DNA from: an uncultured bacterium
GTDB taxonomy: Bacteria > Babelota > Babeliae > Babelales > Babelaceae
Direction of reading: 5' to 3'
Length of the DNA: 64,000 bases
NCBI GenBank assembly: GCA_963819815.1
Contig: CAWFXL010000001.1
Coordinates: 1,540,642 to 1,604,641 of the forward strand
In this document: piece after piece, positions 48,001-54,000 of the stretch
Numbering within the stretch: the stretch's first letter is position 1
How the letters are laid out: each line of letters begins with the position of its first letter
Position numbers: made by a program

Positions 48001-51000
48001 GCATATCTACCGGGGTAGGGGTTATTGATTCAGTATCTTCATCTACATTAAAGCCTTGGATTGTCAAAAACGTTGGATCTTCCTCATTTTGAGTTCTGGC
48101 TGTGCTATTATTTGACCAACAACCAAAAATAGTAGGCCAAGTAAAATGAGGACAATCGGGCGGCATAAACATTGACGCTGTTGAACTGGCCTCGGCATGT
48201 AAGAATGATGCCATTGAGCTAGCCTCAGTACGTAAGAAGCTCCAAGCGTTTGAGAAAACTTGCCGTAAAGATCTTGATACAGATATTTCATTTGAGAAGA
48301 TTTGGTAACCTACGTCAGCTGGCGAAAAACGTGCAGAGTCACTGGCAAAACCAAATGAGGCTGGTGTTATTACAAGCGCTGGAGTGGTATTCCCTAGGCC
48401 AGCGTAGAAACTATCTCGGAAGTGGCTGGACCTGTCAACATCGTGAAGGCGATTCATCCTACTCATTAGATCCTGCTGTAGAAGCTGCAAGGTTTCATAG
48501 CTCATTGCATCGTCTGAACCATATCTGGTGCCTGGTCGATCTGATGCGGCTGCTCTTTTAGTTTCATCAATTTTGCGACAAAAAGGGCAGCTGAAATAAT
48601 CTTTCGTTGCTCTATCCCAACACTCTGAACAAATTGCTTTGTTTTTACAGCAGGGAGTAGTAAAATCAGCTTTTTTGTCTACGCATATTGTACAGACATT
48701 ATCTTCTTTTGCTTGAGGAGCTGTCTCTGACTCAGTTGTCTGTTCATTGTTAGTATCTGGTTGAGCAGCATAAAGTGGACATCCTAAAGCTAGGATGACT
48801 GTTCCAAGACACAGTGTATACACAAATTTCATACTAATCCTCCACAAGGATTCTATGTTTTTATACGATTTAGTGTAGCATATGCTTACCAAAAGTCCTA
48901 GAGCCCCTGCTTCTCTAGAACTAGACGGCATTGGCTAATCATAAAGAGTCTTCATAATCGCACCACCCATCAAACCAGATGACATCATATGATTTATGAA
49001 TCGCTGGTGCTGACCGCTTCCTTTGAGAGGGTGATGAGTCTATATCTGAACGAAACATGAGCCTAGGCTGTTTCTGAACGCCTTTTTTGCAGCATCTGAT
49101 AAGCTATTGGTATGTATGCCACTAGGTGACTATGATTTGAAGCATTGAATCAAAAGAATAGGGGCCCAATGCTGGACCCCTACGTACAAATTCTAGGTCT
49201 TTAAGCAGCTGCGCTAGTTGGGCCTTGCTGATTCCGTTTTACGTATATTGAGTACATCCATGCAGAGGCACCCACTACAACAGCAAGGGCTAGACTCTTA
49301 GTGAGTATAGATGAATCCTTTTTTTTGCCGGTGTCAGTTGAATGGGCGTTTGAGGTATCTCTACTGATATCCGCTTTTGGCTTTGAAGTATCGCCTCGAG
49401 GCGTACCTACTGGGGTTGTAACTGGGGTTGTCAATTCAGTGCCTTTGGCGGTGTCATCTTCATCATCCTCATCATCAGTTCCAGTGACCGTGCTCGTATT
49501 AGACGAACGACCAAAAATAGTAATATGAGGCAGACTCAAATTTGGTCGATAGGACCATAGATGTCCGCAGAATGCTGCTATATTCCCAAATGAAAATGAA
49601 GATTCCTTAGCATTTGCATTAGTAGCTATGCTTTCGCTCACGCCATTAGCGGTACCCATCGCTGAGCTTTCTTGATGAGATGCTGCCGTGCTTTTTGCAG
49701 TTGTATCTATTTTTATGCTTGAGCCTGCTGAAGTTCCTTCAGCTGTGCCATCTTCATCATCAACATCTACAGCTACTGCGGGGATCGTGCTTGTGGTAGG
49801 CGAACTGCTCAAAGCATTTGAGAAAACTTGCCATAAAGATGTTGGTGCAGGTCTTGTATTGGGGGCTGTAGTTGTCGCGTGTATGTTTCTAGCTGAATCA
49901 GCTGCAGGTAGGGCTGTTGAAGGAGCTAAAGATGCCCTTTCTGGACTCGCTGGGACAGGGGTTTTAACTTTTCTTTGGTTGCCAACTAAATTACTTGAAG
50001 TAGCTGCTGCAGGAGCTGGAGTGGTACTTTCTGAAGGAGCTGGGGTAGTGCGCACTTTTTTTGTACTAGCCGTGACTTTATCAGTTACTCTTGTAGCTGG
50101 GATCGGTGATGCAGGGTTTGCCGGGCGATCTGCAGGTGCTTGCGGTGGAGTAGCTGCTGGTGGTCGAGAAGTTGGAGCAGTATTTGTATTTTGCATCTTA
50201 CTTGACGGAGCCTGTGGAGCTTTCGTTTGAGGTGCACTCTTATTTGGTGCTTGGCCTTGCAAGCTACTGCCTGAATTTACAGAAGCAGCTTTTGGAGCTT
50301 GAGTCCCCGATGAGCCATTTGCTTGAAGAGCTGTCCCAGACTTAGCGGCTTCTTTTTGAGCATTTTTTGCCCTCAGTACTCTTGCCATCATCTCTTCTTG
50401 ATGAGATTCTTGAGAAGGTCCTTTTGATGCCTCTTTAGCTGGATTTACTTTTACTTTACGCAAGGTTTTGCCGGCTTGAATGGAAGCGAGTAGCTCGGAC
50501 TTATCTGCTTGAGTTGCGGGTTTTGTAGCAGGTTTTGAAGGAGGCCGCGGTGCGGGTGGTGGCAATACATTGACTGATGTTGTCTGTTCAGCAGCGTGGT
50601 TAATTTGCTGTGATTGGGCTGTGCTAGTATCACCATCCCCCCTTACAGGGGCGCTGGCGACCGGTTTATGCGTGTCCTCTTGGGAAATATTTGACCGAGT
50701 TGCTTGAGGTGCGCTGCTAGCATCACCGTCATCATCATCGTCGCCCAATAACATACGTAATGTAACAGGTTGCGGAGCAGAAGTATGACCCAATGCTGTC
50801 ATTCGGTTATACATTCCCCTAAGTAGAGCTGACGCAGTCAAACTATTTGTCTCGCTTGGTTGCCCAGAAGTTGCCCCCTGCTTAGCACCATGTGGCCTTG
50901 AAGCCGGCTGTGAATCTGTCAAGCTCGTCCTAGATGTTACAAGAGCCGAATCTGGCTGAGTAACGCAATTGTTTAAAAGAATAACCAAGGAAGAATAGCC

Positions 51001-54000
51001 CTTAGCTTCGCAATCCTTATACTCAAGCTTATTAGCAGTAAATCTATCCACTGCTGGATGAGGATTTGCTGAAAACTTATTATGTACGAAATCACAGACC
51101 AGATCGACTTTTTCTAATGTTTCTTGTGGATTAAGATATCCTTTATTTTTCTCAAACTCTTCTACTATCTCCAATAAATATCGTGGTAAGTTCCTTTCTT
51201 CCATTGACTTTAACTTAGCTAGAAGGTTCTCCTTGGAAAGATTCAATTGCATCGCCGCGTTGCTACCAGCCAGGGATAGATTTCTTGAGGCCAATTCTTT
51301 CCTAAGATGCTCAGCATCACTAGCAGCATACAGTGGACATCCTAATGCTAGGATGACTGCTCCAATGGACAGTATATAAACAAATTTCATCGTATATCCT
51401 CCGCGGGGATCCTATATATTCGTTACTACAGGATTTAAGTGTAACAGATGATAACCAAAAATCTATAGCCTTGGGTCTGAGGAGCTGGAAGACTAATTAT
51501 TGGCTAACCACAATATAGCCTTCTGTCGCGGAACCACACTACCCAATCATCAAGCAGTTGATATCGTAAGATATCAAGCATGTCTCTGAGCAAAATTCCA
51601 ATGGTAAAAAAAGGGACCCAGAAATGGGTCCCTAAGTGTACGAGTTTTAGCTCTCTATGCAGCGGCGCTGGCTGCCTTTTGCTGATTGCTTTGTGTGTAT
51701 TTTGAATACAACCATACGGAAGCACCTGCAACGACAGCAAGGGCTAGCCCCTTAGTGAGTATAGATGAACCCTTTTTATCGGAATCAGATGATCTGGTTT
51801 TGCCCATATCTTTATTGATTTCAGCTTTTGTATCCGGAGTATCACCTGTGGGGGTACCCACTGGGGTGACTACAGGGGTGACAGGGGTTTTCAATCCATC
51901 ATCTTTATCTAAATCCAAGAGTGGGGCGGTCAAAGAAGTTGGATCTCCTATGATATCGTCCTCATCCTCCTCAGTTCCAGTGACTATGGTAATATTAGGC
52001 GAACGTCCAAACATATTAGGCAAAGTAAAACTAGGTCGATAGGACAACATACCTCCGCATAATGATGCTACATTCCCACATGAAAGTGTTGATCTTCTAC
52101 CATTTGCATTAGTCGCGGTGGTGGTCCTTACCGTATGTATTAGGCTCATACTGGTAGAAGACAAACCGTTAAAAATAGCTTTGCCCAGATAAAGCGACGT
52201 GCGTCCGCATACTGATGCTATATTCCCACATGAGAATGTTGATCTTCTCGTAGTGCCTGAACCAGCTACGGGTGGTGTCGCTGAAAGAGCTGAAGAGGCA
52301 CTTGTTGAAGGAGCTGAGGTAGTGCTCGCACCTTTTGATCTATCTTTCTTTTTCAACCTGGCAGCTTGTCCACCTGGACTAGAACTAGAAGTGGTATCTC
52401 TTGTATGAACTGTGGCTGAGCTAGCTGAAGAAGCTCCAGCAGGGCCACCATCAACATTTACTGATGTGGTACTTGCTGCGATCGTGACAGTATCTGTTGA
52501 ACTGCTCCAAGATCTTGTGAGAGCATCCCATAAAGATGTTGGTGCAGGTCTGTTAGTGCTTGCATTAACGGTCATGCTTACACTCCCAGCTGAATCAGCT
52601 GCAGGTGCTGTCATTGAAAGAGTTGAAGAGGCACCTGTCGAAGCAGATGTTGCTGCAGGAGCGGGAGAGGCCGCTGGGGTTGCAACTCTTGAGCGTACCA
52701 TGCGAGTTCCTGTTGGACTAGCTACTGTAGGAGCTGAACCGACATTTTCAGAACGAGCCTTTGGTGTTGTTCTTGGAGCTTTTGTACTAACTGGGGCTCC
52801 ACTAGTTGTAGCAGTTGAAGTATGAGCAGGAGAAGCCGCTGGGGTTGCAGCCCTTGAGCGTGCTTTGCCTGTTCCTGTTGAACTGGTTGAACTAGCTACT
52901 GTAGGAGCTGAAACGAAATTTTCAGAACGAGTTTTGGCTGCTCTTGGAGCTTTTGTACTAATTGCGGCTCCACTAGTTGTAGCAGTTGAAGTATGAGCAG
53001 GAGAGGTCACTGGGGTTGTAATTCTTGAATGCGCATTCCCTTTTCCTGGTGAACTGGTTGAGCTAGCTACTGCAGGGGCTGAAATGACACCTTCACGAGC
53101 TTTGGGCGTTCTTGCATCGTTTGTGCTAGCCGTGGCCCCACCCGTTACTGGACTTGCAGTAGATGTTGCTGCAGGGACTGAAGGGGCACCAACAATAAAC
53201 ATTTGCCCATCTGCGCCAACGAACGCACTATTTGAACGAGCCGGAGTAGTGCTAACAGCTCCCATACTATCCGCAATTACTACATCGCTTGAAGTTGCTG
53301 CTGCTGAAAGAACTGGAGAGGCTGCAATTGAAGCAGTCGGTGAATGGAAAGTGCTATTTGTTGCTTGGGGAGACCTTTGGCTAACTGAATCTGCATTCTT
53401 GTCATCACCATCGTCTTTATTCGTAGACCACCACCCACTAAACCAAGATCTTGATTGAGCAGTTCTTCTATTAGTTGGTTCAGAAGTGACGCTTGCGCTT
53501 GTTATATCAGCTGAAATGACTACAGGAGTTGCTGGATGAGATGATACCATACTAGTTCTTGGGGCATCATCTTGAATGTCTGTGCTACTAGATGCACCGC
53601 CTGAAACGAATGCAGTCGATGTTTCTGGAAGCTCTGGAGAGGGGGTTTTTGAACGAGATGGGGGTGTGATAGTACCCTTTTTCTCGCCGGCAGTAGTTTT
53701 TACATCATCATCATCGCTATTAGAATCAGATGAGCGAGATGAGGCTGCTGAACGTGAATGAGATTGAGAGTATGGGCTCTCGGTTCCTTCTTTATGATGA
53801 TAATGTGCCATGCGTTTCCATCTTCTTTCAAGAGCTGGCACATAGATGTTGTTTACAGCCCTTTTAATATCGAATGCATGTATTTTCCCTTGCTCGAGTT
53901 GAACAGTAAACAGTGCAGTAAGCTCTCTAACTTTGTTATCCTTCATTGAGTCTAATACATCGTACTTTTTAGATATTTGATCTTCAACTGAAGGGAGACT

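Follow-up and report, generated by a model that had tools for sequence, protein, structure and literature searches.

Does the 729-aa ORF g01437 (positions 49201-51390, minus strand), located in the 64,000-nucleotide stretch of DNA analysed here (the window), encode a manipulator of host actin, and would such a protein work as ActA does? The genome-wide survey's note had proposed host-actin manipulation for g01437, its paralog g00841 and an unrelated protein, g01423, based on an ActA-like layout. One part of this proposal stands, since conserved WH2 motifs are found behind proline-rich stretches in exported proteins. The ActA mechanism does not, given the lack of an acidic-Trp tail and the diderm envelope. 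We suggest, with a probability of about 0.55, that the three are Sec-exported host-directed proteins whose Pro-WH2 modules bind host actin, two of them being membrane-tethered, and that they are not Arp2/3 activators.

The translation of g01437 contains all the parts originally described, namely a signal peptide, a proline run, a WH2 motif and a C-terminal helix. All features given below with coordinates lie on the minus strand of the window. The signal-peptide-like N-terminus (aa 1-23; 51322-51390), read from the translation, has two candidate cleavage sites, one a lipobox-like Gly-Cys (aa 17-18) and the other Ala-Ala (aa 22-23), and is common to g00841, to P0003 (an ortholog of g00841 from elsewhere) and to a neighbour with a RING-like finger. 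It is followed by a conserved orphan N-domain, predicted to be helical (aa 24-148; 50947-51321), with 62 to 65% identity among g01437, g00841 and P0003. This domain had been called folded, a description that its all-helical AlphaFold2 model (mean pLDDT 55.7) does not bear out. It has no match in the Atlas, and in the Pfam scan aa 28-49 weakly resembled SAP (E 0.073). At E<=0.001, a search of 1.84e9 representatives with an N-domain profile gave 5 proteins: g01437, g00841 and P0003 match over the domain, the RING neighbour matches in the signal-peptide part only, and P0004 (2484 aa) matches weakly at positions 116-148 (E 9.9e-5). The family is very narrow, consisting at this threshold of the first three proteins, the weak P0004 and matches confined to the signal peptide (P0005 and, in G001, a fragment at the end of a contig). 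No function is suggested by the N-domain.

The body of g01437 is disordered, 51% of it being Pro/Ala/Ser/Thr, with Asp/Glu runs (aa 217-223, 543-546 and 639-646) as well as amphipathic stretches (aa 186-201 and 332-349). The first of these stretches and the Asp run after it (aa 186-223; 50722-50835) are the counterpart of the C-like helix that follows the first WH2-like repeat (WH2-a) in g00841, WH2-a itself being deleted in g01437; the match is weak (iE 67) and not significant alone. A proline stretch (aa 276-286; 50533-50565), also read from the translation and a candidate profilin or SH3/EVH1 site, lies ahead of the WH2 motif (aa 295-316; 50443-50508); the proline run in it, at aa 277-284, precedes the motif by 16 residues. 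It is 47 to 67% conserved among the paralogs and the ortholog, and a check for Ena/VASP motifs found it to be a single short stretch without repeats. After the WH2 comes a short helix-like segment (aa 332-349; 50344-50397), conserved with g00841 and P0003, which share 77% identity in it and 33% with g01437. The protein ends with a juxtamembrane module (aa 575-698; 49297-49668), a weakly hydrophobic helix with Lys/Arg on its flanks (aa 699-717; 49240-49296) and a polar tail (aa 718-729; 49204-49239) whose last residues are Ala-Ala-Ala.

The Pfam WH2 profile (PF02205, gathering cut-off 23.1 bits) reproduced exactly the scores first reported, with g01423 (24.6 bits) and g01437 (23.6) above the cut-off and g00841 (aa 318-338; 22.7) below it, as is P0003 (20.6). 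In the six-frame search, the per-genome E values of the three ORFs are 4.8e-6, 5.0e-6 (g01437) and 8.2e-5. When a W-C-A profile was made from 9 proteins of other Dependentiae, it matched exactly these three among 4203 ORFs (E 1.1e-7, 2e-7 for g01423 and 6.7e-5 for g01437), the next match having an E of 2.6. In all three motifs the amphipathic helix carries a hydrophobic pair and Ile, and a Gly turn and an LKKV-type motif follow in canonical spacing. A strict pattern of the core spacing found g01437, g00841 and g01423 only among the 4203 six-frame ORFs, which agrees with the uniqueness claimed before.

A chance motif in low-complexity sequence would be conceivable for a WH2 of about 20 residues that scores near the cut-off. 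The 12-codon cores of the three copies are identical at 28 to 30 of 36 bases, and because of this shared ancestry they represent one origin and not three, so that a single chance event would suffice; at least one pattern match appeared in 12 of 300 shuffled proteomes. None of the 300 gave three or more, however, and the mean over the per-ORF shuffles was 0.04 matches against 3 observed, so the excess over chance held. The two independent profiles also concur, the proline stretch is at its canonical place, and the motif is kept in the ortholog, with core changes that are mainly synonymous (synonymous to replacement 5:1, 4:2 and 2:3 in the paralog comparisons). In addition, the module recurs across the phylum: a six-frame Pfam search of 261 genomes found WH2 above the cut-off in 21 and at E<=0.01 in 32, against 0 of 14 controls. 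In the survey's count, WH2 at the strict level occurred in just 3 of the 189,784 bacterial genomes, and this rarity we could not reproduce. We consider a chance origin very improbable; on this sequence evidence, the WH2 motif is real and conserved under selection. No actin gene was found in the 261 genomes, which leaves host actin as the only plausible partner of these modules.

The paralogy of g01437 and g00841 was confirmed by the alignment of their N-domains (64% identity) and of their WH2 motifs. In g00841 and P0003, WH2-like repeats occur at about aa 175, 324 and 361, and a helix lies near aa 393; from the second repeat to this helix, the elements are 30 to 40 residues apart. The additional stretches near 175 and 361, already noticed by the survey, were seen again. 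An independent Dependentiae profile supports the first (aa 174-226; iE 0.006), while the second (aa 365-401) is not significant. Both are kept in P0003 with 50% and 69% identity, against 26 to 41% in the linkers, and the conservation islands between the two proteins include WH2-b (75%) and WH2-c (69%). Under the independent profile, two stretches of g00841 reach significance and one or two more are weak. Two of these repeats were lost in g01437, which has one WH2.

The third protein, g01423 (329 aa; 33825-34814), has a signal peptide, a beta-sandwich domain, a Pro-rich region (aa 189-268), a WH2 (aa 269-288; 33951-34010) and a C-like helix (aa 302-318), and is without a membrane helix. Its beta-sandwich N-domain belongs to a genus-wide family that is present, as described previously, in 8 of the 9 other genomes of the genus. 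There it forms frames of about 175 to 220 aa without the Pro-WH2 tail, and of these genomes G001 alone has the tail. With one WH2 and no anchor, g01423 speaks for another reading of these proteins, as actin binders that inhibit: by monomer sequestration or barbed-end capping, the WH2 would block, for example, host motility, trafficking that depends on actin, or the maturation of phagosomes. Sequestering or capping is what one WH2 does in solution, and MavH of Legionella, which according to the Discussion of its paper inhibits polymerisation in solution by leaky capping, offers a precedent. The same Discussion and PMC5753033 describe, however, that a proline stretch before the WH2 and a membrane tether turn WH2 modules into assembly sites, and g00841 keeps two to four repeats, like nucleators. 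A purely inhibitory role seems rather unlikely to us.

Members of the phylum are parasites of protists. Complete WASP-type W-C-A modules were recognized in at least 12 of the 31 WH2 proteins examined in it, and a profile of 16 such Dependentiae modules retrieved N-WASP from the PDB (E 1.2e-19, and 1.2e-15 for an alignment through W, C and A), with further matches to WAVE1 (likewise through W, C and A), Spire, Cobl, WIP and VopL. By a crude window test, a signal-like hydrophobic N-terminus is present in 24 of these proteins, out of 27 whose 5' end is intact. Both ActA and the factors of the WASP family use two elements to activate Arp2/3, a connector helix and a Trp-containing acidic tail. The commonness of full W-C-A proteins raises the possibility that g01437 and its relatives are nucleation-promoting factors of this kind, anchored at the surface and building branched actin by activating host Arp2/3. 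Their Pro-rich and WH2 parts correspond to the front half of a W-C-A module, g01437 has acidic runs and amphipathic stretches, and g01423 aligns into the start of C. In hhalign comparisons with the 16-module profile, however, g01437 is covered in 22 W columns only (probability 90%, E 1.6e-6) and WH2-a of g00841 likewise in W columns only. The alignment of g01423 (probability 95%, E 2.5e-8) spans 45 columns, that is W and the first half of C, and stops before the basic pair. None of the three proteins aligns with the A part, and past the WH2 no Trp was read in or beside an acidic run; the short Glu-rich end of g01423 is free of Trp, and the acidic run at aa 217-223 of g01437 lies before the WH2 and has only a weak equivalent in P0003. 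Since the connector and acidic-Trp parts are absent, Arp2/3 activation is not supported, and we regard it as improbable.

The reading we prefer, export of actin-binding proteins towards the host, depends on where the anchored bodies end up. The genome encodes two Omp85 proteins and four secretins and is therefore diderm, so a signal peptide plus a C-terminal alpha-helix does not by itself put g01437 on the surface. In a diderm, the default topology of such a protein leaves the body in the periplasm, anchored to the inner membrane and away from actin, and the three could be envelope proteins of the bacterium in which the WH2-like stretch is a relic or serves another partner. Their bodies are orphan low-complexity sequence, and the genome yielded neither VirB4 nor FHIPEP (markers of T4SS and T3SS) nor a rhomboid. 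An NCBIfam scan of 15 proteins matched no known C-terminal sorting domain (PEP-CTERM, GlyGly-CTERM, LPXTG and others), giving only Myrrcad (E ~0.1) in two other proteins. An envelope role would nevertheless leave unexplained why three genes selectively retain the motif, the signal peptides beside N-WASP-like W-C-A modules across the phylum and the company in which the anchor is found.

The layout of signal peptide and C-terminal helix occurs genome-wide, and it also carries a RING-like finger and ankyrin repeats, domains that act in the eukaryotic cytosol. On one side of g01437, a paralog (47687-48832) shares its signal peptide, its anchor and part of its juxtamembrane module, and contains a Cys-rich RING-like finger (zf-C3HC4_3 23.1 bits, Prok-RING_4 21 bits, both below the cut-offs of 27). 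Translation of this 414-aa ORF probably begins at Met 34, and the resulting 381-aa form is the one represented by P0005. On the other side, a 1009-aa paralog without family match (51655-54684) has the same juxtamembrane module and anchor (43% identity with aa 575-729 of g01437 by blastp, E 1.9e-24). As inner-membrane helices, the anchors would be unusually weak: the Kyte-Doolittle peak (window 19) of g01437 is 1.67, against a median of 1.92 for 488 transmembrane peaks of polytopic ORFs in the same genome, and the set has a hydrophobicity of 1.54 (1.92 in the genome's own membrane helices) and a body-side positive charge of +2.4 (against +1.6). Thirteen of the 16 anchor-bearing proteins of the genome end in AA. 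We consider the envelope alternative unlikely.

For export, the genome has two T2SS-type ATPases and LspA. A core T2SS has been reported in TM6, and a cultured member is described as having signal peptides on 44% of its proteins and on 78% of its ankyrin proteins. The hydrophobicity window behind our signal-peptide calls is crude and flags much of the proteome as well, namely 627 ORFs of 100 aa or more, the gene-like ORFs of 60 aa or more numbering 1570 in all. Passage through the outer membrane would probably use a secretin-based system or vesicles. Actin binding, the membrane that receives the anchor and the direction of the net effect (assembly or inhibition) are likewise inferences. The three proteins would leave the cell by Sec, aimed at the host, where their Pro-rich and WH2 modules would bind profilin-actin or actin monomers. 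g01437 and g00841 would be held at a membrane by the weakly hydrophobic helix, and this tethering could cluster the WH2 motifs, a single one in g01437 and tandem ones in g00841, and so create places where actin assembles or filaments attach. This scheme is modelled on MavH (one WH2-like motif and lipid binding), RavH (three and lipid binding) and the Pro-rich and WH2 arms of BimA. The three proteins probably tamper with the host cytoskeleton by a route other than that of ActA.

A broader proposal, which we offer tentatively, is that Dependentiae, lacking markers of type III and type IV secretion, hijack host actin with Sec-exported mimics of eukaryotic actin regulators, and that this lineage has a derived form, displaying WH2, RING and ankyrin domains on a host-facing membrane through an undescribed C-terminal signal. 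That signal, in which a basic patch, a Gly/Ala-rich helix of weak hydrophobicity and a polar tail with Ala-Ala-Ala at its end would be combined, may act as a tail anchor after secretion. If true, it would represent a new route of effector delivery and anchoring and a new reservoir of actin-assembly factors. No paper combining 'WH2' and 'Dependentiae' was found, as in the survey's own search.

Among known systems, ActA has the order of parts seen in g01437: signal peptide, actin-related motifs, Pro-rich part and C-terminal membrane helix. ActA, however, sits in the single membrane of the monoderm Listeria and activates Arp2/3 through acidic and connector regions, which are absent here, in a diderm genome. 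As a mechanism it is disfavoured by the W-only alignment (W and the start of C in g01423), the missing acidic-Trp tail and the envelope. The W-C-A (VCA) module of the WASP family and of its bacterial mimic RickA shares the WH2 and the preceding proline stretch, but g01437 and g00841 have neither a C helix with the basic pair nor the acidic Trp tail, and g01423 has at most the start of C. With the tandem-WH2 nucleators (Spire, Cordon-bleu, VopL/VopF of Vibrio and TARP of Chlamydia), g00841 and P0003 have spaced WH2-like repeats in common, although g01437 has one WH2 (fewer than three repeats), g00841 only two significant ones, and there is no VopL-type dimerisation domain. BimA of Burkholderia, an Ena/VASP mimic, is described as a surface-anchored protein with Pro-rich regions and WH2 motifs, nucleating and elongating filaments with no complete Arp2/3-activating module. 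Its anchor is a trimeric autotransporter barrel in the outer membrane, whereas g01437 has no autotransporter domain (Pfam finds WH2 and the weak SAP only). MavH and RavH, effectors of the amoeba-dwelling Legionella pneumophila, are comparable by their description, which gives MavH one WH2-like motif, RavH three in tandem and both a membrane-binding part, clustering on the membrane making them assemble actin. The single WH2 of g01437 and the two to four of g00841 mirror this pair. Both Legionella proteins have a lipid-binding domain for PI(3)P and depend for delivery on the Dot/Icm type IV system, whereas g01437 has a C-terminal hydrophobic helix and a Sec signal peptide, and the capping-protein motif of MavH was not found here. 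By these analogies, g01437 and g00841 look more like membrane-tethered WH2 effectors such as MavH/RavH and BimA than like ActA.

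The window is the 64-kb end of a contig of 1.60 Mb; the genome measures 1.64 Mb and is 88% complete. On its reverse strand, g01437 (49201-51390) encodes a protein of 729 residues. The translation starts with a signal-like N-terminus (aa 1-23) and a conserved segment reaching to about aa 148, here called the N-domain. These are followed by a body (aa 161-560) of which 51% is Pro, Ala, Ser or Thr, containing a proline stretch at aa 276-286 and a Pfam WH2 match (23.6 bits) at aa 295-316. From aa 575 the protein has a module in common with its upstream neighbour, and it ends in a hydrophobic stretch (aa 699-717) and a polar tail of 12 residues, the last three being Ala. 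Both flanking genes (47687-48931 and 51655-54684) are paralogs of g01437 in the signal peptide and/or the C-terminal module. The neighbour at 47687-48832 (reverse strand), which has the same signal peptide and C-terminal anchor, contains a Cys-rich RING-like finger (zf-C3HC4_3 with 23.1 bits and Prok-RING_4 with 21 bits, both below the cut-off of 27), being a candidate host-directed ubiquitin ligase. Its 414-aa ORF probably starts at the internal Met 34, since the library protein P0005 is a 381-aa form.

Judged by sequence searches, the family of g01437 is an orphan one. No relatives were found in 41 related genomes outside its own, apart from a signal-peptide fragment (22 aa) at the edge of a contig of G001, another genome of the genus, and a search of 5.8e9 proteins (lengths of 400-1276 aa) returned only g01437 itself and g00841, its paralog elsewhere on the same contig. 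With an N-domain profile, five proteins reached E<=0.001 among 1.84e9 representatives. The match lies over the domain itself in g01437, g00841 and P0003 (550 aa), and in the signal peptide only in P0005, the RING neighbour. P0004 (2484 aa) has 8 matches to profile positions 116-148 (E 9.9e-5) and could be a repeat protein sharing this short segment. The AlphaFold2 model of the g01437 N-domain was too poor for a fold search (pLDDT 55.7), and the ESM Atlas yielded nothing usable. A weak SAP-motif likeness is present at aa 28-49 of g01437 (51244-51309, reverse strand; 13.2 bits, E 0.073, the cut-off being 23.9), in a segment conserved in g00841 and P0003.

The scores of the genome-wide survey's note, which had described membrane-anchored WH2 proteins of ActA-like layout, were reproduced exactly: 23.6 bits for g01437, 24.6 for g01423 (a 329-aa protein, 33825-34814, reverse strand) and 22.7 for g00841, the Pfam cut-off being 23.1. 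A chance motif is hardly credible. A strict WH2-core spacing pattern finds these three and no other among 4203 six-frame ORFs, and in 300 composition-preserving shuffles of each ORF the mean was 0.04 matches, with one match in 12 of the 300 and three in none. An independent profile, for which nine modules running from WH2 to C-terminus were taken from other Dependentiae genomes and no sequence from this one, recovered the same three ORFs (E 1.1e-7, 2e-7 and 6.7e-5), the next ORF having E 2.6. The g01437 WH2 region alone, searched against PDB with phmmer, reached N-WASP only, at a non-significant E of 3. The copies themselves are, from their sequences, not of independent origin: 28 to 30 bases of the 36-base core are identical among them while the flanks have diverged, which makes a single origin followed by copying likely. 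All the same, the copies have been retained: codon differences within the core are synonymous and replacement in ratios of 5:1, 4:2 and 2:3 in the three pairwise comparisons. Both g00841 and its ortholog P0003 retain WH2-like repeats at about aa 175, 324 and 361 as well as a helix at about 393, of which g01437 has lost the first and third repeats by deletion. Between these orthologs, identity is 75%, 69% and 50% in the WH2 blocks and 67% in the Pro stretch, against 26-41% in the linkers. We take the motif, on this sequence evidence, as genuine and under selection. A SpoIID-domain protein of the window (9500-10750, reverse strand) also has a WH2-like C-terminal stretch (profile E 4.6), most likely by chance.

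In its N-terminal part, g01423 is a member of a secreted-protein family with lengths of about 180-220 aa. As the survey's note had stated, this domain occurs in 8 of the 9 other genomes of the genus. It has no tail there, the Pro-WH2 tail being limited to this genome and G001. Since the family is tailless in those 8 genomes, the Pro-WH2 module was joined to a pre-existing secreted protein. The model of the domain is a confident beta-sandwich (pLDDT 81), for which Foldseek gave only weak beta-sandwich likenesses, the best being IglE (E 9e-4, TM 0.34/0.55). Directly upstream of the gene there are N-domain paralog fragments, at 35188-35445 (reverse strand) and in a frame just downstream (contig positions 1575618-1576017), one of them with an in-frame TGA; by sequence, they are probably a decayed tandem copy.

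In 261 genomes of the phylum, the six-frame search with the Pfam WH2 model found matches above the cut-off in 21 and at E<=0.01 in 32, over 24 of 145 genera, genomes of one phylum not being independent samples. No match was found in 14 control genomes. A search of the 261 genomes for an actin gene was negative. The rarity claimed previously, WH2 in 3 of 189,784 bacterial genomes, is contradicted by these 21. The search pointed to 41 places outside this genome, and the DNA was obtained for all except that in G112, another genome of the phylum. In the fetched loci, 31 distinct ORFs match the nine-module profile at E<=0.01; nine of them went into the profile, so that their scores are given by construction, and the architecture was read from the sequences. 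The counts that follow are our own reading of ORFs preselected by a WH2 match. Twelve of the 31 (in loci L012, L013, L014, L018, L023, L025, L026, L036, L039, L041, L042 and L044) have the full WASP arrangement, W-C-A, in which the WH2 (W) is followed by 15-30 linker residues, then by an amphipathic helix closing with a basic pair (the connector, C) and, at or near the C-terminus, by an acidic run that includes a Trp (A). Among the loci from other Dependentiae genomes (L008-L046), complete modules form the C-termini of signal-peptide proteins in many genera, examples being L044:2549-2776, L012:1378-1587 and L023:1366-1578 (all reverse strand) and L039:3093-3296 (forward strand). Two ORFs have the acidic run without Trp, about 7 end after the helix, and the remainder have W only. 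Three further loci were inspected by eye: the L031 protein combines signal peptide, Pro run and WH2 with an acidic-Trp end, two WH2-like stretches are present in L035, and the 56-aa frame of L046 looks spurious. Used as a profile against PDB, a 16-sequence W-C-A alignment found N-WASP (1.2e-19) and WAVE1 (1.3e-6), together with Spire, Cordon-bleu, WIP and Vibrio VopL; in a second N-WASP chain (1.2e-15) the alignment spans W, C and A as far as the terminal acidic-Trp. A crude 12-residue Kyte-Doolittle window indicates a signal-like hydrophobic N-terminus in 24 of the 27 ORFs whose 5' end is intact. None of the 31 has a hydrophobic C-terminus (top 18-residue window 0.78). Wherever a public source names these ORFs, they are 'hypothetical protein'. 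In another Dependentiae record, the 707-aa protein P0012 combines ankyrin repeats and WH2 according to precomputed Pfam domains.

True activation of Arp2/3, the function of complete W-C-A modules, is quite improbable for the proteins of this genome. Against the 16-sequence profile, the alignment of g01437 is confined to 22 W columns (probability 90%, E 1.6e-6) and the first repeat of g00841 matches W weakly. The g01423 tail aligns over 45 columns (95%, E 2.5e-8), from W through the linker to the middle of the C helix. The acidic-Trp part of the profile has no match in any of the three, and no Trp within an acidic run was read downstream of their WH2; therefore the defining parts of an Arp2/3 activator are missing, in g01437 and g00841 together with the connector. 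A profile search of the ORFs of this genome revealed no further W-C-A protein.

For a protein with a signal peptide and a C-terminal helix in a diderm, the body would by default stay in the periplasm, and such proteins would never meet actin. We consider this unlikely here, since the recurrence of the layout, the cytosol-type domains on the anchor and the weakness of the helices argue that the default is not the whole story. By hydrophobicity heuristics, on which all our signal-peptide and membrane-helix calls depend, 28 gene-like ORFs of the genome have a signal-like N-terminus and a single C-terminal hydrophobic stretch. A recognisable C-terminal module, with a basic patch, a weakly hydrophobic Gly/Ala-rich helix, aromatic (Tyr/Trp) residues and a polar tail, is common to at least 16 secreted proteins, 13 of the 16 ending in Ala-Ala. 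They are encoded at contig positions 982391-998379 (L047), 919712-921169 (L048), 311464-313761 (L049) and 72210-73382, and at 47687-54684 of the window. The bodies joined to the module include ankyrin repeats (one member), the RING-like finger and the WH2 proteins, all these domains acting in the eukaryotic cytosol. The anchors are of two sequence types, which we treat as analogous and only possibly related because their cross-detection is weak: the profile of the larger family misses the g01437 type (E>10), and the reverse profile finds two members (E 4e-5 and 0.047). Their helices are weakly hydrophobic: the mean peak is 1.54, whereas the 488 membrane-helix peaks of the genome's 63 polytopic ORFs have a median of 1.92. 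The body side of the helices carries more net positive charge (+2.4) than the tail side does (+1.6). Curated sorting-signal models had no match to these proteins, and the module may be an undescribed sorting or tail-anchor signal. Such weak segments, we presume, resemble eukaryotic tail anchors and export-compatible membrane segments in injected effectors more than bacterial stop-transfer anchors. In animal cells, expressed ActA is targeted to mitochondria by its own C-terminal helix. T2SS substrates of Vibrio whose signal is a C-terminal helix become lipid-anchored on the cell surface. We therefore infer that the helix would tether the protein to a host-facing membrane after export.

Elsewhere in the window, seven tandem paralogous genes (11090-18118, reverse strand; 239-278 aa) have near-identical signal peptides and no family matches except a weak SprB-repeat match in two. 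Two adjacent paralog-sized orphan ORFs of 636 and 650 aa (58374-62282, reverse strand), without Pfam match, have signal-like N-termini and alike C-terminal ends. The GC3 of the genes studied here (0.28-0.35, against 0.37-0.42 in housekeeping genes) gives no clear signal of recent foreign origin.

For export, the genome contains four secretin genes, two T2SS/T4P-type ATPases, LspA and two Omp85 proteins; VirB4, FHIPEP and rhomboid were not found in its 88% complete sequence. One of the four secretin matches (contig positions 22164-22663, reverse strand) extends over two frames and contains an in-frame TGA; a frameshift, pseudogene formation or faulty assembly could account for this. The inventory agrees with the picture drawn in two papers, as far as their consulted parts go: in TM6, a type II system is described as core, with two copies of gspD (PMC4776705), and for the cultured Chromulinavorax destructans signal peptides are reported on 44% of proteins and 78% of ankyrin proteins, along with outer-membrane vesicles, actin being unmentioned in those parts (PMC6561590).

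Mimicry of WH2 or WASP modules is known in few pathogens, in Rickettsia, Listeria, Burkholderia, Vibrio, Chlamydia and Legionella, all of which, to our knowledge, possess dedicated injection or surface-display systems. WH2 mimicry by bacteria is an established phenomenon (review, PMC9569871). Our full-text search, with most subscription journals and supplementary tables outside its scope, found no link of Dependentiae or TM6 to WH2 or Arp2/3, and for 'Dependentiae' with 'actin' no paper on such effectors was seen among the matches listed, judged by title and start of abstract. The novelty lies in the phylum, in the Sec-signal context in genomes without T3SS/T4SS markers, in the breadth of canonical W-C-A in this little-studied group of protist parasites, and in the anchored W-only variant, in which one lineage joins WH2 modules to an unusual C-terminal anchor. 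If the proteins reach host actin, Dependentiae must carry cytosol-acting effectors over two bacterial membranes by an unrecognised route. The phylum would then hold a natural series (W only, W-C, W-C-A; single and tandem; anchored and soluble) suited to studying how the context of WH2 sets sequestration, elongation or Arp2/3 activation.

We suggest, with a probability of about 0.55, that the tethered Pro-WH2 module serves as a local site of actin assembly or attachment. The Pro stretch would recruit profilin-actin, the WH2 would hold the actin monomer, and tethering at high density on a membrane could lead to local filament assembly or barbed-end attachment. Surface-clustered WASP-family proteins are reported to speed elongation via WH2 and Pro-rich parts (PMC5753033). 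For g01423, a soluble protein, the role may be one of monomer binding or capping. Binding of actin with an inhibitory outcome is the rather unlikely alternative. Both outcomes are described for Legionella MavH, which has a single WH2-like motif, is inhibitory in solution and drives robust assembly, along with tubulation of the membrane, when it is clustered on PI(3)P membranes; inspection by eye revealed no MavH-like capping-protein-interaction motif in the window proteins. Such membrane-dependent assembly is also reported for Legionella RavH, with three tandem WH2-like motifs and a lipid-binding domain. With one WH2 in g01437 and two to four in g00841, the two paralogs form a pair analogous to MavH and RavH.
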